Positions 7,624-27,457 of a DNA stretch of 35,163 nucleotides are shown in pieces. A program made the position numbers and the translations under genes. Under the pieces are notes generated by a model. The model was not told the DNA's origin. It ran no database searches and was given only the letters and a program-made list of their open reading frames with translations. This DNA is from a virus (Duplodnaviria > Caudoviricetes). The stretch spans positions 1-35,163 of IMG/VR virus record IMGVR_UViG_3300014208_001455, one strand, 5' to 3'. Every line of letters starts with the position of its first letter. Positions within the stretch are counted from its first letter, which is position 1.

Positions 7624-8944
7624 GTTTTTTCGGATGTGCTGGCCTGACATCTTTGTCTACGACAAGCTGGAGGAGATTTGCGACTCGATCGTCCATAACC
7701 GCCGCACGACTATCCGATCCGGTCACGGCGTCGGGAAGTCCTGGCTCATGGCTCGGGTCGCTATTTGGTTTCTCTCGGTCCATCGACCTGGAATCGTCCT
7801 CACCACAGCCCCCACAGGGCGTCAGGTGGAGAAAGTCCTCTGGGGAGAGATTCACAGCGCATACAACGCTTCGCGCGTGCCCTTGGGCGGTACGCTATTA
7901 CAGATCACGTGGAAGATTGACGAGAGCAACTACGCCCTGGGCTTTTCAACCGAGGAGAGCGTCAATCAGCGCGAGTTTGGATCCGCGAAGATGCAGGGGT
8001 TCCACTCCCCAAACCTCCTCATCGTCCTAGATGAAGGTGCTGGCATCGCTCCCGAGACGTGGATCGGCGCCACGTCGCTCCTCACGGGCGAAAACAACAA
8101 GCTCGTGGACATCGGCAACCCTTCCAGCCCCACAGGACCGTTTTATGAGACGTTCAAGAGTCCGATATACAACAAGATCCACATCTCCTGCTTTGACCAT
8201 CCAAACGTGAAGCTAGGGCGTGTGGTAGTGCCTGGCGCTGTGACACGCGAGTGGATCGAGGAGCGAAAGGCAGAGTGGGGAGAGAATAGCCCACTCTATC
8301 AAGCCAAGGTGCTCGGTAACTTCCCAACGGAGGGCACGGATACTCTGATCCCTCTCACCTGGGTCGAACGCGCTGTCGAGAATCCAAACGTGAAGGAGGA
8401 GGGTGCGAAGAGCATTGGCTGTGACGTGGCCCGCTTTGGCGATGACCTCACCACGATCTACAAGTGCACGGGTAGCTGGTTCGACCTCGTGGAAGCCGCG
8501 GGCAAGCAGGACACCACAGAGACCGCCGGAAAGCTCCAGAAAGCGGCAAAAGATTTTGAAACGGAATTTGTGGCCGTGGATGACACGGGCGTCGGTGGAG
8601 GCGTCACGGATATTTGCCGGTCAAACGGAACGTCAGTCATACCTGTCAACTTTGGATGCGCGGCAAACGATCCTGAGAAGTTTTTTAACCTCAAGGCAGA
8701 AATCTACTGGGGATTGCGCGAGGCGTTCGAGAAAGAGAATGAAATCCGTATCCCGAACAATCCGCATCTCATTGGCCAGCTCGCGAGCATCAAGTTTTCC
8801 ATCACTGCCAAGGGACAGATCAAGATCGAGAGCAAGGACGAGATGAAAAAGCGCGGACTCAAGTCACCGGACCATGCGGATGGTCTCGCGATCTGTTTTT
8901 ACGCCAAGCGCGCGAACTGGATACCGGAAATGCTGTGGATATAA
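7565..8944 (+). CDS. terL: Terminase large subunit (start uncertain)
   Basis: Walker A SGHGVGKS, Walker B LIVLDEG, GNP, nuclease GCDVARFGDD and SPDHAD. Confidence 0.93.
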   Translation: MPKPQKKITNIERLQKSPVEFFRMCWPDIFVYDKLEEICDSIVHNRRTTIRSGHGVGKSWLMARVAIWFLSVHRPGIVLTTAPTGRQVEKVLWGEIHSAYNASRVPLGGTLLQITWKIDESNYALGFSTEESVNQREFGSAKMQGFHSPNLLIVLDEGAGIAPETWIGATSLLTGENNKLVDIGNPSSPTGPFYETFKSPIYNKIHISCFDHPNVKLGRVVVPGAVTREWIEERKAEWGENSPLYQAKVLGNFPTEGTDTLIPLTWVERAVENPNVKEEGAKSIGCDVARFGDDLTTIYKCTGSWFDLVEAAGKQDTTETAGKLQKAAKDFETEFVAVDDTGVGGGVTDICRSNGTSVIPVNFGCAANDPEKFFNLKAEIYWGLREAFEKENEIRIPNNPHLIGQLASIKFSITAKGQIKIESKDEMKKRGLKSPDHADGLAICFYAKRANWIPEMLWI

Positions 8945-8983
8945 AGCCCGATCACGCATCGGGTTTTGTCATGCTGGGGGAGT

Positions 8984-11071
8984 ATGAGTCTTCTATCCCG
9001 CATTCGACATGCCTTTGGTGCGCTGACGAAATCCGCGCCGACAAACGTTTTCAACTCCATTTTCGACAGTACATCAAACCCATCGGCAGATATCGAGGGG
9101 TGGCAATACAAGGCTTCGAAACTTCTCGGGGAGGAGATCGGCGCCATGGCTTTACGTTTGTATCGAGTGGCACGCGACGGATCCTGGGATGAGGTGACTG
9201 GCGAAAGTGACATTTTGTCGCTCTTGGAATCGCCGAATGCGGACATGACGCGCTCTGAGCTTTTTGAGGCGACATCCATGCATTTGGACTTCTACGGGAA
9301 TGCGTACTGGTTCCTGGAGGGCGTGAAGGATGAGCGTGGAAAGCCAAAAGCGATTTACTTGCTCAACCCGAAGCATGTACGCGTCGAGAAGACAGGATCA
9401 TTCCCGCAGAAGGTAAAGCAATACACGTATTCACTGGGTGGCAAGGAATACAAATTTGAGCCATTCCAGATCCTCCAATTCCGTGAGACAAACCCATCCG
9501 ACTCCCTCATCGGCATGGGTCCGATTCAGGCTGTGGCAGACACGGTGGAGCTTGATCAGGAGGCACGGACCTGGAACAAATCATTTTTCAAAAACAGCGC
9601 ACGTCCTGACCTCGTACTCAAGTCGAATTTCCGTACGCGTGAGCAGATGGAACCCATGCGCGCGCAATTCGAGGACAAGTACCGCGGATCCAAAAACGCT
9701 CATCGCGTCGCTGTGCTTCCTGAAGGCGTCGTGCCGGAAAAAATGAGCTGGAGTCAGAAAGAGATGGATTTTGTCGAGCAACTCCGCTGGACGCGCGACG
9801 ACATCCTATCCGGCTTGCGTACGCCGCACGTTGTCCTTGGCCTTGGTGCTGGGGAGAACCTGAACCGCGCAACTGCTGAGGCCACCAATTACATCTATGC
9901 CCTGCGCACGGTGTGCCCGCGCATGAAGCGGATCGTGCTTTTTTTGAACACACGCCTTTTGTCGCGCTTCGATGGCGACCTCGTCCTGGATTTTGATAAC
10001 CCTGTTCCACAGAACGAGGAGCTGGAGATGAAGAAGCGCCAGGCCGCGCTCGGCAATCAGCCGTACATGACCGTCAACGAGGTGCGCGACACGCTTGGCC
10101 TTCAGCCGATCGACGGCGGAGACAAGATCGCCACGGTGACGAATTTCGGCGCAGGAGGAACGGCGCCGGCAAAGCGACTCCAGATCAAGACCATGCCAAC
10201 ACGCATCCGAACATTCCACAAGAAGGAAGGCGCGAAGGAAGAGGAGGCAGATCTTCTCGCTGGGAAGATCGCCGACAAGCTCAAGATGGCGATGGAGGCG
10301 AGCACGCAAAAGGCAGACGACGGGGAGGAAGGATGGAATGCGTTTGTCGCGCGAGTGACGCCATTCGAAACGAAAGCCAAGGAAGCGATGGCTGACTACG
10401 GATTCGCCATGGGTGATCGAGCTGTTGCGGCGCTGGAGAAGCAGACCAAGGCCATCAATGCCGACGACCTGATCAACTTCGAAGATGAGATCACTTTCAT
10501 CATCGACGCCATGGCGCCGGTCATGCGCGAGCTTGCCGAGGCTGAGGGCACAACCGTGGCCGAGATCGTGGGAGGTGCCTTTGATGCGCAGAGCGACCGC
10601 CTGGAGAAGGCTGTGAACGACGCCATCGAACTCATGGCCCAAAACTACAATCAAACCACCGTAGAGGCCTTAAAACGCGAGATTTTGGAGGGTGAAGAGG
10701 CGGGGGAGGGGATTGATCAGCTCAAGAAGCGCATCCAGGACATCGCCGAGTTTTCGAGCACGGTCCGAGCCGACATGGTGGCGCGCACAGAGTCCTATCG
10801 GATCGCGAACATCGCTGGGCGTGAGGCATACCTTCAGACCGGCATCAAGGAAATGGTCTGGTACACAGCACTCGATGAAAAGGTGTGCGAGTTTTGCGCT
10901 CCCCAACACGGGAAGGTCGTAGCGACTGATGCGAACTTTTTCACCAAGGGCGACGTGATCACGGGAAGCAATGGCGAAACCATGACCGTCGAATACTCCG
11001 ACATTTACGGCGGAGCGTTGCACGTGAATTGCCGCTGTCAGGTACGGCCCAATGTGAACTTTGGGGACTGA
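8984..11071 (+). CDS. HK97-type portal protein fused to Mu-F/SPP1 gp7-like head morphogenesis domain
   Basis: Portal motifs LLESPN, YGNAYW, FFKNSARP, MTVNEVR; C-terminal ARTES, WYTALDEKVCEFC, HVNCRC. Confidence 0.9.
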   Translation: MSLLSRIRHAFGALTKSAPTNVFNSIFDSTSNPSADIEGWQYKASKLLGEEIGAMALRLYRVARDGSWDEVTGESDILSLLESPNADMTRSELFEATSMHLDFYGNAYWFLEGVKDERGKPKAIYLLNPKHVRVEKTGSFPQKVKQYTYSLGGKEYKFEPFQILQFRETNPSDSLIGMGPIQAVADTVELDQEARTWNKSFFKNSARPDLVLKSNFRTREQMEPMRAQFEDKYRGSKNAHRVAVLPEGVVPEKMSWSQKEMDFVEQLRWTRDDILSGLRTPHVVLGLGAGENLNRATAEATNYIYALRTVCPRMKRIVLFLNTRLLSRFDGDLVLDFDNPVPQNEELEMKKRQAALGNQPYMTVNEVRDTLGLQPIDGGDKIATVTNFGAGGTAPAKRLQIKTMPTRIRTFHKKEGAKEEEADLLAGKIADKLKMAMEASTQKADDGEEGWNAFVARVTPFETKAKEAMADYGFAMGDRAVAALEKQTKAINADDLINFEDEITFIIDAMAPVMRELAEAEGTTVAEIVGGAFDAQSDRLEKAVNDAIELMAQNYNQTTVEALKREILEGEEAGEGIDQLKKRIQDIAEFSSTVRADMVARTESYRIANIAGREAYLQTGIKEMVWYTALDEKVCEFCAPQHGKVVATDANFFTKGDVITGSNGETMTVEYSDIYGGALHVNCRCQVRPNVNFGD

Positions 11072-11136
11072 GTGTGGATAAAACACACGAATCGTTCGCG
11101 CAAATCTTTATCTTGAAAGCATAACCCTTCGCATCT

Positions 11137-12291
11137 ATGACCGAAATCATCAAGCACTTGCAATGCAAAGCATTCGTCGAAAAAGCGAATGGACTCCTCA
11201 CTGTCGTCGCGAGCGATGAAACCGTGGATCGTTCTGGCGAGAGCATTCCGATCTCCTCGTGGGATCTGACCAATTTTCAGAAGTCACCGCGCTTGCTCAT
11301 CGACCACGACTATTCCGTGAAGAGCATCGTGGGCGTTGCCGATAACATCCGCACGCAAGACGGCAAGCTCATGTTCGAGCCGCGCTTTCATGAAATCACG
11401 GATGCCGCGCGCGAATGCAAGGCGCTTGTGGAGCAAGGTTTTCTCGACACCGTATCCGTTGGGTTCATCAGCCGCATGAAGGACGGAAAAGTGACGAACG
11501 AGCTCCTGGAGGTCTCCTTCGTGGCCGTACCATGCAACCCGAATGCTCGGACCATGGCTTTGGAGGAAGAGCTGGCCGTGAAGAGCTTCATGAAAGACGC
11601 CGGCGTGGAAGAGGTGAAGCCGGAAGAGAAACCGGTCGAGGAACCGTCAAAACCCGAGGAAAAGCCCGAAAATGCAGGGGAAGAGCCGGTAGGGGAGGGG
11701 AGTGGGGAGGAGCCACAGGAGGCTGTGGAAAAGGGGCTCGTGTATGACACCTTGGAAGCCGCAAGCGAGATCCGAAGTCAGAAGTACAGCATCATGGATC
11801 CGATCGTGTACGCCTTCTGGGACTTCGTAGACGCCTTCATGTTGGACTCCACACCTATCGAGTCACTGAGCGCCCTCTGCGAGGACTATAAGGCCACCAT
11901 GACCCAACTCATGACGGCAGGAGTGCAAATGGAAAAGCAGGAGAAGCCACTCGTCAAAGCCATGGCTGTCTGGTCCATGAAGACGTACCAGGAAATGACC
12001 AAATCCGGACGAGTGTTGTCAGACGCTAACCGTACGATCATTCAAAACGCCATCGCTCAAATGAATGAAGCGAACAGTGCTTTGCAGACGTTGCTCGATG
12101 CAACCGATCCGCAGGGTACTGAGGAGAAGGCCCAGGATGGCAAGGGCGCTCCAAAACAAAGGTCGAGTGGTGCAGGGTTCGATGACGAAGCCCAACTCAA
12201 ATCATGGCTTCTCATGCGTCGAGCTTTGCGCGCCGTGAATTCGGCAACGTCAGAGGTTTTGGCTAAATCAAAGATTACTCTTAAAAAATAA
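11137..12291 (+). CDS. HK97 prohead protease with long acidic/helical C-terminal extension
   Basis: DRSGE, LLIDH, VSVGF, LLEVSFVAVPCNPNA. Confidence 0.9.
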   Translation: MTEIIKHLQCKAFVEKANGLLTVVASDETVDRSGESIPISSWDLTNFQKSPRLLIDHDYSVKSIVGVADNIRTQDGKLMFEPRFHEITDAARECKALVEQGFLDTVSVGFISRMKDGKVTNELLEVSFVAVPCNPNARTMALEEELAVKSFMKDAGVEEVKPEEKPVEEPSKPEEKPENAGEEPVGEGSGEEPQEAVEKGLVYDTLEAASEIRSQKYSIMDPIVYAFWDFVDAFMLDSTPIESLSALCEDYKATMTQLMTAGVQMEKQEKPLVKAMAVWSMKTYQEMTKSGRVLSDANRTIIQNAIAQMNEANSALQTLLDATDPQGTEEKAQDGKGAPKQRSSGAGFDDEAQLKSWLLMRRALRAVNSATSEVLAKSKITLKK

Positions 12292-12293
12292 GT

Positions 12294-13469
12294 ATGTTGG
12301 ATCTCGAATTGTTCAAGAAAGAAATGTCGGCAGAAATCAAGAGCCACCTCGATACGGCTCTGGAAAGCCGATTGAAGTCAGTCATCGGTGAAGAGCGCTC
12401 ATCCATCGTCCGCGAAATCGTGGAAGATATGCGCGTCGAGCGTGCTGTGCTCGGTCATGACCGAACCGGCCTCTCAGAAGGACAGAAGACAGAATTTGTG
12501 AAATTCGTGAAGAGCATCCCAGCACAAACCAAGGCCAACGAGGCAATGGTTGGTGATCAGGATTCTCGTGGTGGGTATTTGATCGCGCCGGAAGTGGCAA
12601 ACGCCATCCTCCGCATCGCGGCTTCCGTGGGCATCGCCATGAGCCAATGCGCACGCTGGGACATGAAGGGCGACGAGCTCGATGTGCCTGCATACGCTGG
12701 TTCCATCTTGGAAGGCGAATGGTTGGGCTTTGACGCGGTTGGTTCCGTCACGGGTGTTACATTCAAGGCCGCGAAACTCTTGGCAAAGAGCTGGCAACTC
12801 GCGTTCGTTGTCGGCAAGGATCTCTTGTCCGAAGCGACGCCACAGGTTGCAGACTTCCTCTTGGCATTGGCTGGCGAAGCATGGGCGAATGCGCTCGATA
12901 AACAGGTGTTCATCGGTACAGGCGCACCATTCACCGGTGTTTTGACGGATGCGAACGTGGGCACGCTCACCCTCGCCACTGGCAAGGATACGTTTGCCGA
13001 GTATGACGTGATCGACGACTCCTCGGATGCCATCGCTTCCGTGGAAGAATCCGTGCTCGATGGTGCGGCCTTCTACTTCTCCCGCACGGTGTGGGCGAAA
13101 TTGCGTGTTCAGCAAGATTCGGCTGGTAACTACCTCCTCCCACAAGCTGGCGCTCTCTTGAGTGCAAACTTCAAGAACGGCGGACCGAAGCCTGCTGGTG
13201 AAATTTTGGGCTTCCCTGTCTATACCTGCCGCCACTTGCCAGCGAACAGCGCCACGGCTGTGTCAACCAAATTCGGCGTGTTCGGTAGCTTGAAATGTGT
13301 CGGTCTTGGTCTGAAATCTGAGATGGACATGGCTGTCTATGCGAGCGGTACATTCGGCGGCAAAGAAGTCGCCCTGTCTCGTCAGCTCGGCATGGTGTAC
13401 GGCTCTCGCGCCGCTGTGTCGTTGACATTGCCGGCAGGATTGGTCGCCATCAAGACCGCCGCCTCCTAA
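12294..13469 (+). CDS. Major capsid protein, HK97 fold
   Basis: GGYLIAPEV, IGTG, GEILGFPV, FGSLK; position after protease. Confidence 0.9.
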   Translation: MLDLELFKKEMSAEIKSHLDTALESRLKSVIGEERSSIVREIVEDMRVERAVLGHDRTGLSEGQKTEFVKFVKSIPAQTKANEAMVGDQDSRGGYLIAPEVANAILRIAASVGIAMSQCARWDMKGDELDVPAYAGSILEGEWLGFDAVGSVTGVTFKAAKLLAKSWQLAFVVGKDLLSEATPQVADFLLALAGEAWANALDKQVFIGTGAPFTGVLTDANVGTLTLATGKDTFAEYDVIDDSSDAIASVEESVLDGAAFYFSRTVWAKLRVQQDSAGNYLLPQAGALLSANFKNGGPKPAGEILGFPVYTCRHLPANSATAVSTKFGVFGSLKCVGLGLKSEMDMAVYASGTFGGKEVALSRQLGMVYGSRAAVSLTLPAGLVAIKTAAS

Positions 13470-13474
13470 TCAGT

Positions 13475-13798
13475 ATGATCACGCGCTCATACAAGGTCTT
13501 GAGACCTATCGCGTACAACGGCAGGCATGAGATCGGGGAGATTGTCGAGATGCCGCCGGAAGATGCTGAGAACATCGGGGCTGAGTATCTGGTGCCCGTA
13601 ACCGCCACAATCAAAATGACGGTAGAGCACACAGAAGCGGGCGCCGATGCAAAGGCGAACGAAGCCACGACCAAGCCGAAAGGCAAGGGGAAGGGCAAAG
13701 GAAAGAAAACCGAGGAATCCGAGGAGGCGGGCGCCGATGCAAAGGCGAACGAAGCCGAAGAGTCCAAGGAAGAAACTAAATCATCCGATAAAGAATAA
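13475..13798 (+). CDS. Hypothetical head-associated protein with charged repetitive tail
   Basis: ORF directly after capsid; EAGADAKANEA twice. Confidence 0.7.
   Translation: MITRSYKVLRPIAYNGRHEIGEIVEMPPEDAENIGAEYLVPVTATIKMTVEHTEAGADAKANEATTKPKGKGKGKGKKTEESEEAGADAKANEAEESKEETKSSDKE
13637..13756 (+). repeat. Exact 30-bp direct repeat, 90-bp period
   Basis: GCGGGCGCCGATGCAAAGGCGAACGAAGCC at 13637-13666 and 13727-13756. Confidence 0.9.
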
Positions 13799-13803
13799 AT
13801 GCT

Positions 13804-14217
13804 ATGACTGTTGCAGAAAATGTAAAGCCGCTCGCTTCGATCGTTCCGCAGACTATCGCTTCGGCGACGACCACTGCGGGCGCCGCGGTCGATACCATGG
13901 GGTACGACAACGTAGAATGGGTGATCGCCGTTGGCGACCTCGATCTCGTTGGCGGCGACGAAACGCACACGATCAAAATTCAGGAGTCCGTCGATGCGGC
14001 ATTCAGTTCACCCGTTGACATCACTGGCGCGACTGTTGCTATGACGGCAGATAGCACCGTGAAAACGATCAAGGTGCTCGGCCTTGGAACCGGATCCCGT
14101 CTGCGCTATCAGCGTGCCTACGTCACGACTGTCGGCGCGACTGTGTCCTGTCCGATCTGCGTCCTCGCCGCCCTTGGTGGAGCGAAGATGAACCCGTGCA
14201 ATACTCCTGACGCCTAG
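13804..14217 (+). CDS. Hypothetical virion protein (possible decoration protein)
   Basis: Beta-rich 137-aa ORF in head module. Confidence 0.6.
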   Translation: MTVAENVKPLASIVPQTIASATTTAGAAVDTMGYDNVEWVIAVGDLDLVGGDETHTIKIQESVDAAFSSPVDITGATVAMTADSTVKTIKVLGLGTGSRLRYQRAYVTTVGATVSCPICVLAALGGAKMNPCNTPDA

Positions 14218-14223
14218 GCGTTG

Positions 14224-14258
14224 GAGGCTCTGCCCTGATTGGCGTCAGGGCAGTCCTC
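14224..14258 (+). terminator. Intergenic stem-loop after head genes (no clear U-tract)
   Basis: CTGCCCTGA-ttggcg-TCAGGGCAG with GAGG/CCTC extension. Confidence 0.45.
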
Positions 14259-14271
14259 TACTGCTTATCCT

Positions 14272-14895
14272 ATGGCCGCAACTATCCATCCCCGCGCTCT
14301 CACGACCCTTGCACGCGTAAAAGCTCGCCTGGGTATTTCGGTTTCTACGCTCGACGATCTCCTCACCGAGATGATCAGCGCCGCCACGGACTTGATAGAG
14401 TCTTATTGTGATCGGAAATTCAAGTCCGATACATACACAAGCGAGGTCTATGGCCTCGATGTCGAGGACGGACACTTTGTGGCATTGAAGCAGGCTCCTG
14501 TGACCGCGCTCACGACCGCCCAATACCGCGCAGGTACGCCGGACGTACCCGCATGGACTTCTTACCTCGCGAGCGAATTCGAGCTCGTAGGGGACGGCAG
14601 GGCGGGTCTGGTGCGAATCTATGGAGGCGTGCCAACTGGGACGAATAACGTTCGATTTACCTACACAGCCGGATACCTGATTGATTTCACGAACGAGGGC
14701 GATATCACAAAGCACACGCTTCCATTTGATGTCAGCGATCTTTGCGAACGCATCGTGATCCGCCTATTCAAACGCCGAGAAGACGTGGGAAAGACGACGG
14801 TGAGCGCTGGGGAGGCGAGTGTCAGCTATCGAGCTTCATTCGATGAAGAGGACAAGATGACTCTCGAACGCTATCGACGCGTTGTCCTCGTCTGA
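14272..14895 (+). CDS. Head-tail connector/adaptor (gp6-like)
   Basis: LTTLARVKARLGI..DDLL..ISAAT..IESYC, YTAGY, LERYRR. Confidence 0.82.
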   Translation: MAATIHPRALTTLARVKARLGISVSTLDDLLTEMISAATDLIESYCDRKFKSDTYTSEVYGLDVEDGHFVALKQAPVTALTTAQYRAGTPDVPAWTSYLASEFELVGDGRAGLVRIYGGVPTGTNNVRFTYTAGYLIDFTNEGDITKHTLPFDVSDLCERIVIRLFKRREDVGKTTVSAGEASVSYRASFDEEDKMTLERYRRVVLV

Positions 14896-14896
14896 T

Positions 14897-15286: not shown

Positions 15287-15287
15287 T

Positions 15288-15734: not shown

Positions 15735-15785
15735 GGCTGTGGATTATTGAGGTGTGTGGATTGAGGCGTTCGTTATGCTCAAAGC

Positions 15786-17341: not shown

Positions 17342-19384
17342 ATGCAAAGCAAAAATTACGCAGGCCCACCATTTCGTGACGCGCAGTTTGCGCGGAATGC
17401 CAATATCGCCCAGAACAAAATCACGGCGAATACAGACGCAAAGATCATGGTCTGTGGGGATTCGATTACCGCACAAGGTGCGACTTCTACTGATGAACGC
17501 GCGGCGGGTTATCGCTACTGGCTACAGAAATTACTTCGTCTTCATCGTGGAAATATCACATGGCTCGGGACAAAGGACATCGGCCCGCAAGTATCAACGG
17601 GGCCATACGCCACGCCCGGCAATGTCATGATGTGGTCGTGGAGATGCGCCGCTCTTGGTGGATACACCATTCAGCAAATTGACACGCTCGCTACTGAGGC
17701 AGAGGCCGCGCAAGGAGCCGCTGACGTGTACACATTGCTTGCGGGAACCAACAACTACGGATCCGATACGGCCGCGCAGGCGGTGGCCAGAATCGTGACA
17801 TTTATTCAGAATCGCATTGCCGCGAATCCTGATTGTGTTGTGCTCGTTGGCACGCTGTTGCCGGCAGGCCCTCCCGTATCCGGATACGCGACAAAACAGA
17901 CGTATCTTGACGCGTTCAATGCCGCGTTACCGGCCGCGCTTGCTCCATACCCGCAGGCACGCATCGTGCCCGTTGGTACGATCATGACGAAGGCGCATCT
18001 GATTGATGGCATCCATCCAAACATTCAAGGAGAGGGCATCATCGGCAAAGCGTTCGCAGACGCCATCCTGAACGTGATTGGCATCTCTGGGGCACCCTTT
18101 CCACGTCCGCTCACGCGTCGCGTACCCGTTAGCCGACTGTCTGTCAGTGGAACTCAGCAGGCCTATTTTTACGACGCGACAAATGCCTCCGGTCTTTTTC
18201 CAACGGCTGGAGAATCGTGGTATGCCCTCATTAAAATCAGACCTTCGGATTTATCCGTTAGCGGTCGACTTATTTTCGGATTTGGAGGTTCAACAACAGG
18301 CATTTTGCTCATGAGCACTACGGCATCTGGCGGTCCGGATGCACGATCATTGCAGGTCTATCATTACGTTGGCCCTACTGCGTATTCAGGACTCAGTGAA
18401 GCGTTGCGCGTGGATCGCGTGCACGCCATTGGCTTGGCCTATGATGCGGACTTGGGAGAAATGACCGTCTACTGTTTGCGCGAAGGTGACGATGGGAAAC
18501 CGGTGACATTCTGCGTCGCGCAAGGAACGGGCGTGCCCGAGCTAGAACCCGGATTCACCTACATGTCCGTCGGCTATCTTTACGGAGTCTCTGGCGTTCC
18601 AGGAACGCGTGGAGATTTTGTCTTCGGCCGAGGCGTTAAGATCACACCTGATGAGATGGAAGCCTATTACATGGAGGGCGCAATTCCGCAGAGTGCAACA
18701 GCATACTATCCATTAAACGAGGGCACGGGCACTTCCCTGAATCCATCTCCGTCTTTTGCCGGACTCCTTCCGGTTGGCGTCACAACCGCCGCGTGGACAA
18801 CCGCGGGCGTTCCTGTCGAGCCTTGGGATCGTGAAGAAGAGGAACGCAAAAAGGTTTTAGCTGACGCATGGGAGGATTTGCGTTTCCCTGCATCGCAGGC
18901 CATGGTCAACCCTGTTACAGCAAAACCGGATCAGGGAGTATTTACGGATGGCATCGAGACGCTTTTATTTGACCCGGATGCGGATGAGAGCGTATTCATC
19001 CATGTCCAGATGCCGCATGCGTGGAAGCTCGGATCGAGCATCGTGCCGCACGTACACTGGTCACCGATGACCACGCATACGGGCGTCGTTCGTTGGGGTT
19101 TGGAATACACGGTCGCATTGAAAGATGGGACATTCGGGGCGTCGACGACGATCTATATCGAGGATGCCGGGGATGGCGTTGCTCTCAAGCATCAAACAGC
19201 GAATTTCGCGGCAATCGTGATGTCGGCCTATGCGGGACTGTCGGTGATGCTGATGTGTCGTCTTTTCCGTGATGCCGATCACGTCAATGACACGTTTACC
19301 GGCGAGGCCGCCTTGCTGGAATTCGACATCCACTACGTGCGCGATGACAACGGTTCGCAATCTGCCACAGCGAAATACGCATAG
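17342..19384 (+). CDS. Multidomain protein: SGNH/GDSL esterase, LamG-like domain, C-terminal beta domain
   Basis: GDSIT, GTNN, DGIHP catalytic blocks; YYPLNEGTG LamG-type motif. Confidence 0.8.
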   Translation: MQSKNYAGPPFRDAQFARNANIAQNKITANTDAKIMVCGDSITAQGATSTDERAAGYRYWLQKLLRLHRGNITWLGTKDIGPQVSTGPYATPGNVMMWSWRCAALGGYTIQQIDTLATEAEAAQGAADVYTLLAGTNNYGSDTAAQAVARIVTFIQNRIAANPDCVVLVGTLLPAGPPVSGYATKQTYLDAFNAALPAALAPYPQARIVPVGTIMTKAHLIDGIHPNIQGEGIIGKAFADAILNVIGISGAPFPRPLTRRVPVSRLSVSGTQQAYFYDATNASGLFPTAGESWYALIKIRPSDLSVSGRLIFGFGGSTTGILLMSTTASGGPDARSLQVYHYVGPTAYSGLSEALRVDRVHAIGLAYDADLGEMTVYCLREGDDGKPVTFCVAQGTGVPELEPGFTYMSVGYLYGVSGVPGTRGDFVFGRGVKITPDEMEAYYMEGAIPQSATAYYPLNEGTGTSLNPSPSFAGLLPVGVTTAAWTTAGVPVEPWDREEEERKKVLADAWEDLRFPASQAMVNPVTAKPDQGVFTDGIETLLFDPDADESVFIHVQMPHAWKLGSSIVPHVHWSPMTTHTGVVRWGLEYTVALKDGTFGASTTIYIEDAGDGVALKHQTANFAAIVMSAYAGLSVMLMCRLFRDADHVNDTFTGEAALLEFDIHYVRDDNGSQSATAKYA

Positions 19385-19694: not shown

Positions 19695-19916
19695 ATGGAA
19701 CAAAAATACTGGCTCGATTCGTCCACGGTGCGTGCATCACTTTTGCAGATGCTCCCCGTCATGGTGCTCGTGCTCAAAATGTTCGGCATCGAGATTGGGG
19801 ATGGGGAGACGCAATCCATCGTCGAGGGCATCACAGCTATCGTGTCACTCGTAGGCGTCGTGTACGCCATCGTGGGACGCGCAAAGGCGGATAAGCCGCT
19901 CACATTCACAAAATAA
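19695..19916 (+). CDS. Putative holin
   Basis: 73 aa, two TM helices, K.W..S.T start, basic C-terminus. Confidence 0.7.
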   Translation: MEQKYWLDSSTVRASLLQMLPVMVLVLKMFGIEIGDGETQSIVEGITAIVSLVGVVYAIVGRAKADKPLTFTK

Positions 19917-19920
19917 CCCT

Positions 19921-20988
19921 ATGAGCACCACAGACGACAAATACGAGCCAAAGACAGGGCTCCGGCCTGATCCTCTCGATGAGAGAGACTTCTTGTATGA
20001 GGACGTCATGGGTGCTGATGCGGGTGATCTTGATTGGGAGAAGGGGTTCAACGTCTACGAAGAGCTTGGCCTGCCATACCCGCACCAAGATCAGGGGAGA
20101 AGCTATTCCTGCGTGGCGCAGTCCACGGCAGAGCATACGCGCGTGTGGTGGAAGAAGCTGACAGGGGAGGATATTGAATTCTCGCCTCGCTTTATTTACC
20201 CGCAAATCGCCCTCGGCTATGCAGGTGGGGCGTATTTGCGCGACGGCGTGCATCTTGTGGCATCGAAGGGCGTATGCGATGAGGGGGAGCTTCCGTCGTA
20301 CGAGAATGGCCAGCCACCGTCCGAGGATTTTATGTTCAACGCCGCGGCGATCACGCCGGACATCCTGGCGAAGGCACTTCCGCACGATCGCTTCAACTTT
20401 CGCGTGATTCTAGGAGGTACGGATGACATTTCGCTCTTTGCGCACGCGATACGATTCAACTGTGGCGTCGTAGGTGGATTCAAGGGCACGAATATCGGAT
20501 GGTGCAGGTCTGAGGTGCGCGCACCACAAGCAGGGGAGGACATATGGGGGCACGCGGTACTGCTTTGCGCGTATGGGATGCACGAGGGGAAGCGATGCAT
20601 GTTCACGCGCAACTCATGGGGAGGGCGTTACACGATCCAGGAGGGGCGCTGGAAGGGATTGCAGGCCATCCCGGAGGAATACTTCACCGCAGGCGTACAG
20701 ACAGCCGTGGGCGAGGCAAAAGGCGTGTACGTGTTTAATTCTTGGGTGCTCGTGCCAGACTCAAAGCTGACACCGGCTCAAAAAACTATGGACTTCTTGA
20801 AAAAGAATGAGGGCAAGCTCGTGCAGGACTCGCAGGGGAGCGGCGCTTTCGGCATCGTGAAGGGTGGAAAGATCCTCGTGGCGAGCAAGGAGCGCGTGGC
20901 GGAGCTTCTCGCGACGTACATCGTGCGAAAAGAGGGCGTGGGCGTGGCACGAGAGATGTGGGCAGACGCGCCGAAGGAGGATTTTTGA
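19921..20988 (+). CDS. Papain-family (C1) cysteine peptidase in endolysin position
   Basis: DQGRSYSCVAQ (Cys), FSPRFIY, GHAV (His), RNSWG (Asn). Confidence 0.88.
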   Translation: MSTTDDKYEPKTGLRPDPLDERDFLYEDVMGADAGDLDWEKGFNVYEELGLPYPHQDQGRSYSCVAQSTAEHTRVWWKKLTGEDIEFSPRFIYPQIALGYAGGAYLRDGVHLVASKGVCDEGELPSYENGQPPSEDFMFNAAAITPDILAKALPHDRFNFRVILGGTDDISLFAHAIRFNCGVVGGFKGTNIGWCRSEVRAPQAGEDIWGHAVLLCAYGMHEGKRCMFTRNSWGGRYTIQEGRWKGLQAIPEEYFTAGVQTAVGEAKGVYVFNSWVLVPDSKLTPAQKTMDFLKKNEGKLVQDSQGSGAFGIVKGGKILVASKERVAELLATYIVRKEGVGVAREMWADAPKEDF

Positions 20989-20994
20989 CCTCGT

Positions 20995-21081
20995 ATGATC
21001 AAAGAGCTGGGATGCGCGGCGTGGATTTTTGTCCTCATCTTCGTGCTGAGCATGTTCGTGGCTGTGAAGTGGGTGAAATGA
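20995..21081 (+). CDS. 28-aa hydrophobic peptide MIKELGCAAWIFVLIFVLSMFVAVKWVK
   Basis: Hand-translated; gtATG just after protease stop; one TM with basic end. Confidence 0.5.
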   Translation: MIKELGCAAWIFVLIFVLSMFVAVKWVK

Positions 21082-21084
21082 AAA

Positions 21085-21112
21085 GGGATGGGATGGGATG
21101 GGATGGGATGGG
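21085..21112 (+). repeat. (GGGAT)5GGG pentanucleotide repeat
   Basis: Directly visible. Confidence 0.95.
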
Positions 21113-21136
21113 CTTGACGGGTTCGAAACGATGCTC

Positions 21137-21165
21137 TTGCATCGAATGGCTGTTTGTTTTATCAT
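21137..21165 (+). promoter_or_regulatory. Sigma70-type promoter
   Basis: TTGCAT-N17-TATCAT. Confidence 0.55.
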
Positions 21166-21171
21166 GTTATC

Positions 21172-21362
21172 GACTTTCACAATTCATTCTCTCGTTTAGA
21201 GCCGAGAGAGGCAACGTTCATCACAGACACTCCAAGTGATGACCATCGAAGGGAGCTACCCTGCTGAACCCCAAAGGTTTGTCAGGTGCTCTAACACTGC
21301 TGACTACCAAGAAAGAAATTTCTAAGTAGTAGGCGGGGTAGTTGCCTTCGGTGGTTTTGTTT
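21172..21362 (+). ncRNA. Candidate structured sRNA or attenuator leader
   Basis: Long stem 21242-21264 with 21333-21355 followed by T-rich tract; two hairpins with complementary loops. Confidence 0.5.
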
Positions 21363-21475
21363 GTCGCAAGAGGCTGGCGACGCTGGTGCTACCAGCCCGC
21401 TGGCTCGACCAGTCCTGGACTATGGGACTCCATATGGCATTTAGCTAGTGGATGATCAGAGTCGGCGACAAACAT

Positions 21476-21637
21476 ATGGCCAAAAGCCTAGTGTTCCGGT
21501 GGTCTTACAAACATCACATCACGAAGCAAATCGTGAGAGCGCGTAAACGTCCGTTTCCGATGTGGCTCGACGATGCAACGGGTGAGGTGCGGAGGATCGT
21601 AAGGGATACGAAAACAACGCCTATTAGGGCGCTGTAA
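21476..21637 (+). CDS. Small basic hypothetical protein (53 aa)
   Basis: atATG start downstream of structured leader. Confidence 0.5.
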   Translation: MAKSLVFRWSYKHHITKQIVRARKRPFPMWLDDATGEVRRIVRDTKTTPIRAL

Positions 21638-21841
21638 TCATCGAAGCTACTAATTCCCGAGTGGAAGCACTCTGGGCAAGACACGCGATTCTTACAAGGA
21701 GGCGCGTGTTTTTGGTTCGTGCCGTGCTACTTACCATTTCAACACAGATCACGTCAACTGTCAGAGTATAGCACAGGCGTCCATGACGGTCTGTGGATAC
21801 CCTCGACTCAACACGTCCAGCACGCGCTACAATGTCCCCAT

Positions 21842-22186
21842 ATGGAACGAGAAACAAAGACGGTGAAGTGCCCGAGTGGCAAGGAGGCTGTGCTCAAAGC
21901 GTATCTGACGGCAGGAGAGCGGAGACAGCTTCGTAACACATTCGCGGAGGCGATTCGTCTCCCCATGACGCGCGGGGAGGATGTACGGGTTGAGAACCTG
22001 GGCGAGGCGATGAATCACGGAGAGGATGTGCTGATCCGTATGGCTGTGACTTCGTACGACGGAAACGCGGACCAGATCGTCGAGCGTCTGCTCGATGGCA
22101 ATCCGAAGGATGGAACGGACGGCGACTACGAATTCATCGTCGAAGAAGCTGGGAAGCTGAACAGCGTTTTTACGCAAGCGAAGTAG
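21842..22186 (+). CDS. Tail assembly chaperone (G-like)
   Basis: Size, upstream of tape measure, overlapped by a -1 frame ORF. Confidence 0.65.
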   Translation: MERETKTVKCPSGKEAVLKAYLTAGERRQLRNTFAEAIRLPMTRGEDVRVENLGEAMNHGEDVLIRMAVTSYDGNADQIVERLLDGNPKDGTDGDYEFIVEEAGKLNSVFTQAK

Positions 22187-22371
22187 CGCAGTCGTGGCAA
22201 CGTTGCTTCGCTGGTCGAGGACAGCCCGATGAGGAGATGATCATCGCCATGGTCTGTCGCGAGATGAAGTGGACGCTCGATCAATATGAAAAACAGCCGG
22301 CACAGTTCATTGACACTGTGACGGCTATGATTTTCGAGGAATGGAAGGCAAAAGACAGGGCGACAAAATGA
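22171..22371 (+). CDS. Tail assembly chaperone C-terminal (T-like) frame, probably reached by -1 frameshift
   Basis: Open -1 frame after GTTTTT (22166-22171) encoding ..CREMKWTLDQYEKQPAQFID.. Confidence 0.6.
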   Translation, partial: YASEVAQSWQRCFAGRGQPDEEMIIAMVCREMKWTLDQYEKQPAQFIDTVTAMIFEEWKAKDRATK

Positions 22372-22557
22372 TTACCGTGTCTTTTTTGTTACGTGGCAAT
22401 GGCGCGCGAAATACTTTACGCCCCATTTTTTGCAGTTTGTACGACAGACGTGGCATCCATAGCGATCCGTGTTGCCTGGGTGGGCATAAGCCACGCCGGA
22501 AGAGAGCGGGGAGAGAATGAGAGCCATTGCGAAAGCAAGTATGAGAAAAATGCGCAT
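22372..22557 (-). CDS. Small secreted His/Cys peptide (YHYH-domain-like), moron
   Basis: Signal peptide ending AYA, HPGNTDRYGCH..HCH. Confidence 0.7.
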   Translation of the reverse strand: MRIFLILAFAMALILSPLSSGVAYAHPGNTDRYGCHVCRTNCKKWGVKYFARHCHVTKKTR

Positions 22558-22563
22558 ACCTAT

Positions 22564-23130
22564 TTATTTGACGATTGCTTGTTTGACTTCTCCTGCACCT
22601 TGTTGCGCAGTGGACCCTTCCATTTTTGCCGTGAAGCTGAATTGATTGATACCCGCGTCGCCATGTTTGGATATTGGACAGGTATTGATGTCAAAATAAA
22701 CGCTTTTTCCGATCACTGTACTGATTGGAGATTCTTTTGAGCTGAATTCCTCGGTCCAGATGTCACGTCCTTCTTTGCTCGTCAGCGTGATCGAGACGGT
22801 TCCCATGAACGCCTTTTCGTCGGTGTTGCGAATATCAAAGAAATACCGGCATTTGCCGTTCACCTCTTTGACGCTTTGGCTTGTGACGGTGAGATGAAGA
22901 TCTTGTTTTTCAACGGGAGCAACCTGGGAGGATTCGTTCGTTGCCGTATTGGTGTGTGACGATTCTTTTGGCATTGTGGCACCAAAAATAACCAGCGACC
23001 CAAAAAGGATGGCTCCAAGCACCATTCCTGCCTTCCCGCGGTTTGGCAACTTAAAAAGGTTCGGCTTGATCAGTCCGGCGATCAGGGCCGCGATGCTGGC
23101 GTAGACAAGGAAATAGGCGATGTATTGCAT
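22564..23130 (-). CDS. Membrane protein with two N-terminal TMs and extracytoplasmic beta domain, moron
   Basis: Start MQYIAY; own minus-strand promoter TTGACT-N17-CACACT (23178-23150). Confidence 0.75.
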   Translation of the reverse strand: MQYIAYFLVYASIAALIAGLIKPNLFKLPNRGKAGMVLGAILFGSLVIFGATMPKESSHTNTATNESSQVAPVEKQDLHLTVTSQSVKEVNGKCRYFFDIRNTDEKAFMGTVSITLTSKEGRDIWTEEFSSKESPISTVIGKSVYFDINTCPISKHGDAGINQFSFTAKMEGSTAQQGAGEVKQAIVK

Positions 23131-23205
23131 ATGGCTTTGTTGATGTGCGAGTGTGGAATAAACCACGGAAAAAGTCAAGCCCTATGATACGCTCGGAGTA
23201 TCAAT

Positions 23206-24726
23206 ATGGCCAATACAACGCTTTCCATTCTTGTTCAAGCAAAAGACGACGCATCCAAGGCACTCACGCGCGTCAATCAGAGCCTTGGCGGGCTTAAGGA
23301 GTTTGCGAAGAAGAGCGCCATCGCTCTCGGAGCCGTTGGAGCTTCCGCCGGCGCGCTTGGTATCGCCGCTCTCAAATCTGCCGGTGAGTATGAGCAGAGC
23401 CGTGTCGCCTTTGAGACGATGCTGGGGAGCGCTGAGAAGGCCACGAAATTTCTCAAAGAAATGACAGCTTTTGCCGCCAAAACGCCATTCGAGCTCAAAG
23501 ATTTGGAGCAAGCATCGAAACAGCTCCTTGCTTACGGAAGCACGCAAGACAACGTGCTCACACAGCTCAAGTCACTCGGGGACGTTGCGGCAGGCGTTGG
23601 AATGGATAAGCTCCCCCAGCTCATCACGGCATTCGGGCAGGTTCAATCCAAGACGCGCCTCATGGGTGAGGAGCTTTTGCAATTCACTGAGGCAGGTGTG
23701 CCAATGCTCGGGACGCTCGCAAAACAGTTCGGCGTCACAGAGGCGGAGATTTCGAAGATGGTGAGCAAGGGGCAGGTTGGATTCAAAGATGTGGAGATCG
23801 CCATGGCGTCGCTTTCGGGGGAGGGCGGTAAGTTTCAGGATCTCATGTCGCGACAGAGCGATACGCTCGTCGGAAAGATCAGTAATTTGCAAGACGCGTG
23901 GAATATGTTTTTGCGCGGTGCGGGCGCACAGTTTATTGAATGGGCCAAGCAGGGCGTGGACCTGTTGATCTGGTTTGTGAACGAGGGGATCCCCCTATTT
24001 CTTGGCAAGATCCAAGGATTGCAAAAAGGATTCGGTGATCTTGTCGCAGAGTTCGAGAAAAAGACGGGGATCATCACACAGCTCAAGGACGCATTCGGGA
24101 GTGTTTGGAAAACGGTACAGGATGAGCTCATGCCATCACTTCAACGTCTCGATAAGGCCATGAGGCCGTTGTATCCGTTTCTTGAGGCATTGGCTGGATT
24201 GATCGCTCAGGTTCTTGTATTGGCCCTCAAGGCGTTCATCGAAGCGCTCGTATTTTTGATCAATCTCGTCGTGCAAATTATCAGTAAGCTGACGGAGTGG
24301 ACGGCAATCATCATGGAGCAGGTGGGTCCAGCGATCGACTTCATGCGTAGTGCTATTGAGACGCTGTCTGGACCAATCCAGCGGGTGATTGACGGGTTCA
24401 ACCGTGTCGCAACTGCCGCGCGTGAAGCATTCGCGGCGGCTTCCCGTGTCGCCGGAAATGTAATAAGCGCCGTAACCAATCCGATGTCATCACTTACGCA
24501 TCAGGCCGCTGGCGGCATCATTTCTTCGCCTCGGCGTGTTCTTGTTGGAGAGGAGGGGCCAGAGGCGATAATTCCGCTCAATCGTCTCGGGATGGGCAGT
24601 GGAGGTGCAGGCGTGAACGTCAACATCTCCGGCGGATCATTTATCGGCACCAACTCTCGCGATGTAGCGCGGATGCTTGGCGATATGATAATCAAGGAGC
24701 TTCAGATGAGTCACAGGCTTGGATAA
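23206..24726 (+). CDS. Tape measure protein (506 aa)
   Basis: FAAKTPFEL, LGDVAAG, AFGQVQSK..LMGEELLQFTEAGVP; C-terminal VGEEGPEAIIPL. Confidence 0.92.
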   Translation: MANTTLSILVQAKDDASKALTRVNQSLGGLKEFAKKSAIALGAVGASAGALGIAALKSAGEYEQSRVAFETMLGSAEKATKFLKEMTAFAAKTPFELKDLEQASKQLLAYGSTQDNVLTQLKSLGDVAAGVGMDKLPQLITAFGQVQSKTRLMGEELLQFTEAGVPMLGTLAKQFGVTEAEISKMVSKGQVGFKDVEIAMASLSGEGGKFQDLMSRQSDTLVGKISNLQDAWNMFLRGAGAQFIEWAKQGVDLLIWFVNEGIPLFLGKIQGLQKGFGDLVAEFEKKTGIITQLKDAFGSVWKTVQDELMPSLQRLDKAMRPLYPFLEALAGLIAQVLVLALKAFIEALVFLINLVVQIISKLTEWTAIIMEQVGPAIDFMRSAIETLSGPIQRVIDGFNRVATAAREAFAAASRVAGNVISAVTNPMSSLTHQAAGGIISSPRRVLVGEEGPEAIIPLNRLGMGSGGAGVNVNISGGSFIGTNSRDVARMLGDMIIKELQMSHRLG

Positions 24727-25390
24727 CGATGTCAACGAATTCACGTGGGTCGGGAGCATGATCGATTCCCTTGGCTTTGTATACCTTTTTCGCAATCATC
24801 AGCTCCTCGTTGGCTATCTTGAGAAAAAGATCACGAAACTCTGTCTTTGCTATTCCTGAATTTTGAAATGCCATTTGAAGTAACGTGTTCGTGCTTGGGT
24901 AGCTTAGCCGATCCTTCGTTGTTTCTTTCAACTCTTCCAGTGTGTCGGTTTTGAATTGGTCATTGACGACAATTTTCCAATACAGATGACGAAAAAGAAG
25001 GATCAACGCTTCTGTGTAATGCTTCCCCTCTGCGCCGAGCTGACATGCCATCAATTCGTAAACCAAACAAAAGCGGCTGGCCGAATTATTCGCATCTTGT
25101 GAGGCGTCACGTATCTCCTGATTAAGAGCACGCCACGCGTCGTCACGTTTTTCGTGTTTCCACAGCTCCACAGCCGTGTGTATATTCCCCATTCCATCGG
25201 TTGCATAGGTCGATATTTGTTTGAGGAATGGTAGCGCTTCCGTCTTTACCCATTCGCCTTTGAAAACACTGATGGTTTTACCGCAGATTTTGCACGCTTG
25301 CTTTCTGGTTGGGATGGGAGCCGGATTGTTGCAGTATGGACACACGGGATCCCGTCTTCCTTTGAACGCCTTGAAAAGAGCTGAGAACAT
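24692..25390 (-). CDS. Hypothetical protein with N-terminal Zn ribbon, moron
   Basis: Start MFSALFK; CPYC..CKIC; TATACT -10 8 nt upstream; lower GC. Confidence 0.7.
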   Translation of the reverse strand: MFSALFKAFKGRRDPVCPYCNNPAPIPTRKQACKICGKTISVFKGEWVKTEALPFLKQISTYATDGMGNIHTAVELWKHEKRDDAWRALNQEIRDASQDANNSASRFCLVYELMACQLGAEGKHYTEALILLFRHLYWKIVVNDQFKTDTLEELKETTKDRLSYPSTNTLLQMAFQNSGIAKTEFRDLFLKIANEELMIAKKVYKAKGIDHAPDPREFVDIVIQACDSSEAP

Positions 25391-25468
25391 ACGTCCGTAG
25401 TATAGCGTCCCGCTGATTGGTGTGTACATCCGCCATCTTTCCGAGGCGGTTTTCGATATGCTTCCCTC

Positions 25469-27457
25469 ATGGCCCTCATCGTCACCATCAACGGCACCGA
25501 CCGTTCGGCGTTCATCGACTGGGAGTCGCTCAACGTCCAGCAAATCGCCACCTCTGAGGTCGATTCCGCCCAGTTCAAGGTCAAGACATACGGAGTAAAG
25601 AAGCTCGCGCTCACCGTCGGCGACGAGGTTCTTGTGTATGACGGCGCCACGGCGATCTTCGGCGGCACCATCGTCCGCGTGGCAAACGAGGTCCTGGCCG
25701 GCAACCTCACCACCGTCTCCGTCGAGTGCGTATCCCACGAGCGCACTCTGGACCGATACCTCGTGGCGCGCGAGATCCAAAACAAAAATGGGTTCTACGT
25801 CATCAACACTATCATCACGGAATTCGTGAACCGTACCAAGAAAGTCATCGCCTCTGGGGAGAGTACGGAGACCTGGACGACCGAGGATGGGACCGTGGCC
25901 GCGAATACGACCGCGGGGGAGTTCATCCTCGAAAGTCAGTCGCGCAAATTCACGGCCACAGCAGGCGCCACGGCCACCGCGCGCTTTCCCTTGACGCTCG
26001 ACCTCACCATCTTCGATAACGGCCTGGCGAGCACCACAGATGACCTGGTGACGTTCTGGTATCACGTCGACACCGTGTCCCGTTTCGCGAGCCTACGCCT
26101 ACGCCTGACGAACGACGCTCCTGGTACATACACCAACTATTTCGAGACGACGATCGTTGCGACGCCACGCCAAGGATGGAATCAGGCAGTCGTGGCAAAA
26201 TCAGCCTTCACCTCCACGGGTAGCCCCGTCTGGTCCGCTGTCACCGCGGGTCAATGTCAGATCACGGCAGGCGCTAGTGGCACGCTCAACGTCTCCATCG
26301 ACGACATCCGCCTCGTGAAAGTGTCCGAGGCCTTCACTCAGCAAAACGTTACAAGCGCCACGGCAGTGCTGGGGAGCGTCAAATTCAATTATGAGCAAGT
26401 ATCTCAAGCCCTCAAGCAGATCGCTGAGGCGCTGGGTTTTGAGTGGTACATCACGCCCTCCCGCGACATCTTCTTCTATCTTCCCTCGACCATCGTGGCA
26501 CCATTCGCCCTGACAGACACAAGCGGGAATTTCGTGTGGGACAGCTTGCGCGTGGAGAGCGACGTCACGAACATCAAGAATCAGGTCTTTGTACGTGGCG
26601 GGGAGTATGACGGCTCAACGATCACGGAGAGCATGGTGGCAGATGGTAGCCAGCTCCACTTCAAGACGCCGTACAAGATGAAGAACGTGAGTGTGAAGGT
26701 TGCTGGCGCAAGCAAGACCGTGGGCGTTGATAACCTGGACGATCCAACATCATACGATTGTCTCTACAATTTCAATGAAAAAACCCTAAAGTTTCGAAGC
26801 GACAATAAGCCGGCCGCAACCAAGATCGTCGCCATCACCGGCAATCCGAAGATCCCAGTCATTGTAAAAAAGAGTGACGCATCCAGCATCGCCACGCATG
26901 GAATTTATGAGTACGTGATCGTCGACAAATCCATCACAACGCTCCAGGGCGGCCGTGATCGCGCGAGCGCCGAGCTGAAGACGTACCGCGACAGTTTGGT
27001 CGAGGGAGGATTCAAAACGTACGTGGCGGGACTCAGAGCCGGACAGACCATCTCCGTCAACGTGGCCGCGCGCAGTATTGCGGACAGCTATCGCATCAGG
27101 TCCGTCACATTCCGCGCCAAAACACCCACGGAATTCGAGTACGAGGCCGCGATCGTGAGCACGCGCACGTTTGGCATCATCGACTACCTCCTTGGCCTCC
27201 TTCGCAAGGAGAAAAAACAGATCGACCTCAATGATAACGAGGTGAGCGATCTTGTGCAGGACATAACGGAAATGCTGACGATCACAGATGTGTGGCTCGC
27301 GGGGAGCCGGAACGATCAGACGGAGACCATCACGTCGTCAGAGGTTTTGAGCAGTCAGCTCGATCACGGAACGATCTTTGTGTTTGGTCCATACACCCCC
27401 ACGGGCTTTGTGGATAATAAGCGGGTGTTCATTTTCGACGGAAGTATATTGGGATAG
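25469..27457 (+). CDS. Tail tip/baseplate hub-like protein
   Basis: After tape measure; ALKQIAEALGFEWYI, NQVFVRGG, GLRAGQTISV motifs. Confidence 0.7.
   Translation: MALIVTINGTDRSAFIDWESLNVQQIATSEVDSAQFKVKTYGVKKLALTVGDEVLVYDGATAIFGGTIVRVANEVLAGNLTTVSVECVSHERTLDRYLVAREIQNKNGFYVINTIITEFVNRTKKVIASGESTETWTTEDGTVAANTTAGEFILESQSRKFTATAGATATARFPLTLDLTIFDNGLASTTDDLVTFWYHVDTVSRFASLRLRLTNDAPGTYTNYFETTIVATPRQGWNQAVVAKSAFTSTGSPVWSAVTAGQCQITAGASGTLNVSIDDIRLVKVSEAFTQQNVTSATAVLGSVKFNYEQVSQALKQIAEALGFEWYITPSRDIFFYLPSTIVAPFALTDTSGNFVWDSLRVESDVTNIKNQVFVRGGEYDGSTITESMVADGSQLHFKTPYKMKNVSVKVAGASKTVGVDNLDDPTSYDCLYNFNEKTLKFRSDNKPAATKIVAITGNPKIPVIVKKSDASSIATHGIYEYVIVDKSITTLQGGRDRASAELKTYRDSLVEGGFKTYVAGLRAGQTISVNVAARSIADSYRIRSVTFRAKTPTEFEYEAAIVSTRTFGIIDYLLGLLRKEKKQIDLNDNEVSDLVQDITEMLTITDVWLAGSRNDQTETITSSEVLSSQLDHGTIFVFGPYTPTGFVDNKRVFIFDGSILG

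Follow-up and report, generated by a model that had tools for sequence, protein, structure and literature searches.

Late-region sites in the prophage

The stretch of DNA analyzed here (the window; all 35,163 nucleotides of IMG/VR record IMGVR_UViG_3300014208_001455) corresponds to G000:C6:15988-51150 within a 1.23-Mb genome that is 97% complete, and it contains most of a siphovirus-like prophage whose host bacterium we infer to belong to Patescibacteria (candidate phyla radiation, CPR). On the basis of Pfam and PHROG matches, the prophage genes include RecT, a replication initiator, terminase, portal, protease, HK97 capsid, tail tube, tape measure, fibres and a tyrosine integrase. This report concerns seven sites in the late region, each composed of a 9-nucleotide word resembling a DnaA box (the binding site of the replication initiator DnaA) and a downstream hexamer resembling a -10 element. 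A preliminary description of the sequence had listed seven such pairs with a start-to-start distance of 36 bp, and all seven were recovered with exactly that position and distance:

8934..8975, plus strand: TGTGGATAT ... CATGCT, before the portal gene (ATG at 8984); the box overlaps the end of terL, and the same site is found in 8 of 8 elements compared
11073..11114, plus strand: TGTGGATAA ... TATCTT, before the protease-capsid unit (ATG at 11137); same junction in 8 of 8 elements
15738..15779, plus strand: TGTGGATTA ... TATGCT, before a 67-amino-acid gene and the tail tube gene; 7 of 7 elements covering the junction
21792..21833, plus strand: TGTGGATAC ... TACAAT, before a gene for a 114-amino-acid putative tail chaperone (ATG at 21842)
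23152..23193, plus strand: TGTGGAATA ... TACGCT, before the tape measure gene; lineage-specific, after a minus-strand insert
25421..25462, plus strand: TGTGTACAT ... TATGCT, before the gene for a 662-amino-acid tail protein; lineage-specific, after a minus-strand insert
27409..27450, plus strand: TGTGGATAA ... TATATT, within the end of a tail gene, before a unit containing fibre genes (ATG at 27502)

Most of the module names proposed earlier for the downstream genes could be assigned by Pfam or PHROG matches (portal, protease, capsid, tail tube, tape measure and tail protein). The 'chaperone' gene (21842-22186) and the first gene of the 'fibre unit' (27502-28167) had no such match, and thus these two names are positional; relatives also possess a +36 site (a box with a hexamer starting 36 bp downstream) ahead of their pre-tape-measure gene, comparable to the site at 21792. 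The gaps between hexamer and start codon were 8, 22, 6, 8, 12, 6 and 51 nt, in agreement with the earlier count of four ATG codons lying 6-8 nt past the hexamer. The reported lack of a good -35 element also held: among 56 unique sites of the clade described below, counted after removal of three in-gene window hits, none begins with TTG at a spacer of 16-18. Nine TGTGGAT words are present on the plus strand of the window, four of which (15755, 29598, 32230 and 34437) have no credible hexamer at +36. In addition, divergent minus-strand TATACT -10 sites are located 30 and 25 bp from two of the boxes (21762-21800 and 25400-25429), so that one bound protein could switch between the inserted minus-strand gene and the late unit.

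Enrichment of the 36-bp spacing

A spacing of 36 bp gave seven matches in the window, compared with 0-2 for each of the other 29 spacings between 25 and 54, and the highest count that any of the 30 spacings reached in 300 dinucleotide shuffles was 2; it should be noted that this test used one pattern that was picked post hoc, after the sites had been seen. A matrix built from relatives only (49 sites) provided a non-circular test of the array. All seven sites were among the top eight matches of the window (15-27 bits), the remaining one being an in-gene, minus-strand match at 28140. The same matrix yielded a mean of 0.16 and a maximum of 2 matches in 200 shuffles, and 0-1 matches when the spacing was shifted by 1-3 bp. 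A chance origin of the +36 array is ruled out by the shuffles and by the relatives-trained matrix.

Conservation among related phages

Alignment of 120 capsid proteins led to 204 loci from three collections. The +36 peak appeared in loci with a capsid identity of at least 63% and in L159. At least two sites were present in 12 of the 81 non-identical loci that extend upstream of the capsid gene by 8 kb or more, and 11 of these 12 formed one clade with four deep lineages (support 83/80); the twelfth, L133, is distant, has two matches and occupies a poorly aligned row. In a gene-anchored comparison of eight elements, the offset was 36 at 23 of 23 heads of the portal, protease and tail units, the start codons having come partly from the site scan, and all 43 filtered sites headed a late-region open reading frame (ORF), non-homologous junctions included. 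The arrays have 5-7 members, with single boxes at nearly all sites and one fixed spacing. Some sites are lineage-specific: those of the tape measure and tail protein in the present prophage, of terS in L139 and, in the L005 group, of a nuclease unit and of another unit next to the putative lysis genes. Repeated gain of sites at the same spacing argues for functional constraint, and the spacer sequences differ both between junctions and between deep lineages. The clade consensus is TGTGGAY(A/T)n-N27-TAYRCT, in which box positions 1-4 and 6 were preset by the search pattern, with a G three bases ahead of the hexamer. A motif-only scan of viral contigs with one strict pattern returned 62 loci and no unrelated phage with an array: of 61 new loci, L243 (which shares a contig with L014) alone had several same-strand sites, two had one site per strand and 58 had a single site. 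Outgroup phages mostly lack internal promoters at the corresponding junctions, and a few have box-free extended -10 sites or host-type boxes. The seven elements are conserved, -35-less, promoter-like sites and are likely to be sigma70 late promoters.

The G three bases ahead of the hexamer, which is extended -10-like and occurs in 42 of 59 sites, might suggest an opposite role for the box, in which DnaA would keep weak extended -10 late promoters repressed in lysogenic cells until it is titrated or displaced on phage replication. DnaA is often described as a repressor (PMC8203912), and sister phages with box-free extended -10 sites could be accommodated as well. We nevertheless regard such repression as highly improbable: the box does not cover the start but is located farther upstream than the -35 region, a steric block would need no single-base spacing, and the dinucleotide in question is more often CG than the TG that a full extended -10 has (23 versus 13 of 56 sites).

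The box and host DnaA

The likeness of the 9-mer to a DnaA box, noted in the preliminary description, extends to most of the clade. With the consensus, base-affinity order and base-reading residues as described in PMC2533591, 48 of 56 clade sites and five of seven window sites lie within one mismatch of TTATNCACA (15 perfect, 33 with one mismatch and 8 with two), and the highest-affinity central base is present in 54 of 56 boxes. The boxes are single at nearly all sites, in contrast to the box clusters that stable DnaA binding involves in Bacillus subtilis (PMC2533591). Host DnaA aligns to 1J1V, and its basic-loop Arg, PRQ and RDHT..H residues are invariant in 21 of 21 aligned relatives. By sequence criteria, these sites would belong to a DnaA regulon, and DnaA binding is predicted.

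Host DnaA is the sole protein with PF08299 (domain IV) in its genome, and no Bac_DnaA_C or DnaA-domain-IV homolog could be detected in the phage loci (best E 0.41). No phage gene for a free-standing DnaA domain IV, which could have served as the activator, was thus found in these searches. Separately, DnaA-domain-IV matches apart from dnaA were observed in two host genomes of the same family (G695:C71:6416-6727 and G696:C18:4729-5001).

Related promoters in the host class

The possibility that the layout is simply a generic host promoter, raised at the outset, was rejected for the exact layout. In the host chromosome, a +36 hexamer followed 1 of 307 TGTGGAT words and none of 23 perfect boxes, and the matrix gave 10 matches at 36 compared with 2-14 at other spacings, with no excess. 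The exact layout is phage-specific. On the other hand, perfect boxes in the host were intergenic in 17 of 23 cases against a background of 25%, and were often near TTGACA. In 251 genomes of the host class, a perfect box was found ahead of TTGA-N18-20-TAYRMT in 190 cases with the orientation seen in the phage and in 194 with the opposite one, as against 2 and 2 for reversed-pattern controls. Among the 150 matches listed per orientation, phage-orientation offsets peaked at 37-39 (70 matches, with 9 at 36, one genome supplying 11 of the 29 at offset 37), those of the other orientation peaked at 40-42 (56 matches), and a second peak was found about one turn further. When a -35 was not required, 68 hand-picked perfect-box rows peaked at 38-39, eight of them lying at 36.

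The box-plus-(-35) layout is common in host-class chromosomes, which suggests that the idea was borrowed from the host. These promoters share with the phage sites the same 9-mer on the same side and at nearly the same distance. They differ in having perfect boxes in both orientations, broad spacing (37-39 and 40-42, plus one turn) and usually TTGAC, whereas the phage sites share one orientation and a spacing of exactly 36, lack a -35 and are relaxed at the 3' end. The late sites appear to be a derived, -35-less and rigid version of an architecture of the host lineage. More generally, DnaA may be a widespread promoter-proximal factor across Patescibacteria.

Many of the host-class box-plus-(-35) promoters (for example, G022:C4:76490-76532 and G210:C23:38-83) also carry a TTCGG-N6-TTCGG direct repeat in the spacer. 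This repeat, presumably the Parcubacteria LexA box, suggests possible co-regulation by DnaA and LexA.

A candidate phage co-activator

Contrary to the preliminary statement that the window holds no obvious late activator, ORF clustering and profile searches pointed to one candidate:

3226..3588, plus strand: c17, an orphan early gene of 120 amino acids, candidate late co-activator

This gene tracks the motif and adjoins the first +36 promoter in eight relatives, where its stop codon lies inside a CGTGGATAA box belonging to an additional +36 site at the head of the first late unit. In ORF clustering of 12 clade loci, c17 was the one early gene, besides the replication initiator, that was common with the present prophage, and the only such gene detected alike in this prophage, L139 and the L005 group. 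Its profile matched every clade locus extending far enough upstream and no outgroup locus. At least two +36 sites were present in 11 of 11 c17-positive loci, and fewer in 69 of 70 c17-negative loci. Since these loci represent one clade and have 10-kb flanks, the co-occurrence nominates c17 and does not prove its role. As a separate observation, near-perfect TGC-extended -10 sites occur at the corresponding junctions in the sister phages L157, L169 and L035, which lack the +36 box and in which c17 was not detected.

The c17 family is small (32 and 9 matches in homolog searches), two loci, L289 and L290, being truncated remnants. Searches of Pfam, PHROG and PDB sequences gave no match, the atlas gave none that was usable, and no homolog was found in 400 other genomes of the phylum. 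A first structural model was poor (predicted local distance difference test, pLDDT, 57), with no viral fold match; that of homolog P0121 (pLDDT 78) shows a beta-hairpin, a helix and a long helical hairpin, without a helix-turn-helix and with no PDB fold match at E<=0.001. A conserved basic RRRRG stretch follows the predicted beta-hairpin. In 8 of 38 homologs, a C-terminal motif resembles QL[S/V/A]LF; the clamp-binding consensus is QL[SD]LF, and MuC is described as needing its clamp motif for late transcription (PMC12867686).

With such a gene at hand, one may ask whether DnaA is needed at all. A phage activator, either c17 or another diverged early protein, might read the TGTGGAY core alone in a Mu C-like manner, the likeness to DnaA boxes being ancestral or allowing DnaA to compete. 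The constant core with varying last three bases, the lack of intergenic enrichment of the phage box variants in the host, the position of c17 next to the first +36 promoter, as in classic late activators, and its basic RRRRG stretch would all agree with this explanation. We consider it somewhat unlikely, as the protein has no predicted helix-turn-helix or known DNA-binding fold and a net charge of -1 in this prophage, the asymmetric single 9-mer equals the DnaA box (perfect in 15 of 56 sites), and a perfect box occurs at offset 41 in the sister phage L035, where c17 was not detected.

Conversely, host DnaA could activate alone through direct contact with RNA polymerase, with timing set by the DnaA-ATP level or phage copy number, c17 being a bystander inherited within the clade. 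The restriction of the co-occurrence to one clade would allow this, as would the host-class promoters, whose boxes lie nearly at the phage position without any phage protein (including the perfect-box rows at 36); DnaA is described as activating nrdAB by stabilizing polymerase and as stimulating lambda transcription via RpoB (PMC8203912). This too appears unlikely. Seven promoters activated by DnaA should leak in the lysogen, and no repressor gene was recognized in the element; the boxes are single and mostly imperfect, as opposed to the clusters in B. subtilis (PMC2533591); and c17 has been retained while nearly all other early genes were exchanged.

Proposed mechanism

The feature is real and unusually well conserved, and would represent activator-dependent phage late promoters in a novel form, with a plausible involvement of the host initiator and a named candidate co-activator. 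Our best model, which we hold just short of an even chance, is that host DnaA on the box acts together with c17 as co-activator at -35-less sigma70 late promoters. First, host DnaA would bind the box, with a predicted center at about -44, a value that presumes a normal start site. Second, c17, made early after induction, would stabilize DnaA on single imperfect boxes or bridge it to polymerase, so that RNA polymerase could fire without a -35 while sigma70 contacts only the -10. Transcription would start about 6-7 nt past the hexamer, making several transcripts nearly leaderless, and dependence on c17 would keep the late sites silent in the lysogen. The layout may have been derived from host-class promoters with a box just upstream of the -35, by loss of the -35 and a shift of 1-3 bp. 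Finally, a link to replication could operate via the nucleotide state of DnaA or, in homologs with a clamp motif, via the sliding clamp, which is the most speculative step. In a further-reaching and slightly less probable form, DnaA would be the DNA-binding half of the late activator, and the new c17 family, some members of which may bind the clamp, would make DnaA at -44 replace -35 recognition at every virion module, thereby repurposing the DnaA-at-promoter architecture of Patescibacteria.

Compared with the preliminary proposal that the structural genes are run by many short DnaA-activated promoters, this model keeps one part and modifies another. The -35-less array at module heads, the phage-specific spacing, the fit of the box to DnaA and the preserved recognition residues all support the proposal; the presence of the c17 candidate and the host-derived layout do not accord with its original form, and DnaA alone explains the box variants and the silence in the lysogen poorly.

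Several observations weigh against the joint action of DnaA and c17. With regard to the box, 41 of 56 boxes deviate from the consensus, always in the last three bases with the core kept, and the relaxed variants used by the phage occur at background level in host intergenic DNA; together, these two facts fit binding by a phage protein alone as well. The strict box-plus-(-35) pattern was found 0 times in this host genome, and in 1 of 6 and 0 of 6 cases in its family. With regard to c17, the motif and the gene occur in one clade (support 83/80), and thus their joint presence amounts to a single event. Upstream of the capsid gene, the 81 loci include no more than 8-10 kb of sequence, and c17 is located 6.4-9.1 kb away, so some absences may be due to truncation. 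The match in L139 is weak (E 0.014 and 0.0078), with four invariant residues kept. The present prophage has no box after c17, and that of L159 lacks a +36 hexamer. The clamp motif is absent from this c17 and from all homologs with known loci, +36 loci included. Moreover, L157 and L169, two sister phages, carry -10 sites at these junctions but no box, and c17 was not detected in them; promoters can therefore exist at the junctions without either.

How DnaA activates rather than represses was treated as an open question in a 2021 review (PMC8203912). The dozens of natural single-box promoters with invariant spacing make this question directly testable. If the model is true, the phage would have built its late switch on DnaA, tying virion production to the replication status of the host, and a new co-activator family with a precise promoter geometry would be added. 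A search of open-licence papers found no report of DnaA-box late promoters or of DnaA boxes in Patescibacteria promoters.

Other features of the prophage and its flanks

The left boundary of the prophage lies directly after host rpsI and the right boundary at a second copy of the rpsI 3' end, both with CACAGTGG; the left copy with the probable attachment (att) core is located about 570 bp ahead of the window (G000:C6:15417). The right end contains the following features:

30883..32019, plus strand: tyrosine integrase (PF00589 match), at the right end of the prophage
32032..32077, plus strand: host-type promoter-like site consisting of TTATCCACA, TTGACG, 17 bp and TATAGT; its offset of 40 is the host-class peak for that orientation, in contrast to the late sites
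32144..32151, plus strand: probable att core CACAGTGG, within the second copy of the rpsI 3' end

The host-type promoter after the integrase (32032-32165) appears strong and is directed at the attachment site; excision would turn it toward the early genes, with a terminator-like hairpin of the left end lying in between. Protein family scans of the prophage recognized no cI-like repressor gene, small orphan ORFs not having been folded. Integration itself may therefore part the right-end promoter from the early genes.

Between the early and packaging genes (4729-7138), the prophage carries glutaredoxin, HAD_SAK_2 and RtcB (of RNA-repair type), where relatives carry methyltransferases instead. 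A 680-amino-acid protein with a GDSL-lipase domain is encoded at 17342-19384 in the tail/lysis region. A tandem run of GGGAT lies at about 21086-21112, and the long stretch at 21090-21450, ahead of a 61-amino-acid ORF at 21452, has no clear gene and contains hairpin-like segments. Relatives L216-L225 (G301, G303 and G305) have integration sites different from that of this prophage and 5-10 kb of cargo between tail genes and integrase; in G301 and G303, the short segment GCGTCGCACAA is found at both ends of the relatives.

Comparison with known systems

In Escherichia coli nrdAB and in DnaA-stimulated lambda, DnaA boxes are also described in the promoter region, and DnaA may contact RpoB (PMC8203912). 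These are single loci with several boxes, whereas the sites reported here form a regulon of 5-7 members with single boxes, fixed spacing, no -35 and virion genes downstream. The DnaA boxes of lambda pR lie downstream of the start. In the middle transcription of phage T4, MotA and AsiA represent a case in which a phage co-activator lets polymerase work without -35 recognition at many small promoters. Both the DNA-binder and the co-activator are encoded by the phage in T4, whereas in our model the DNA-binder would be host DnaA; no homology between the two systems was found. The genes for RinA-type activators of Gram-positive temperate phages are reportedly small and close the early region, beside the first late promoter, and c17 is placed similarly in the relatives. 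RinA acts on one promoter upstream of terS, and c17 has no family match.

In promoter design, the sites resemble the middle and late promoters of phage Mu, which are activated by Mor and C. Mu late promoters are described as having a -10, no typical -35 and an activator site centered at -43.5 (PMC2582627), and the sites in this prophage likewise comprise several putative late promoters with a -10, without a -35 and with an upstream site at a fixed place, predicted to be near -43. MuC uses clamp motifs of the QL[SD]LF type, which 8 of 38 c17 homologs resemble, the c17 of this prophage not being among them, and clamp coupling of late genes is also described for gp33/gp55 of T4, similar to the clamp step of our model (PMC12867686). 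In Mu, a phage helix-turn-helix protein recognizes a dyad of 16 bp, whereas the site here is a single 9-mer that lacks symmetry and equals the DnaA box. No match to the Mor/C family was present among the scanned proteins of the window, and c17 had none by sequence or fold. The late sites of this prophage are not members of the Mu C family but would work by the same type of activation.

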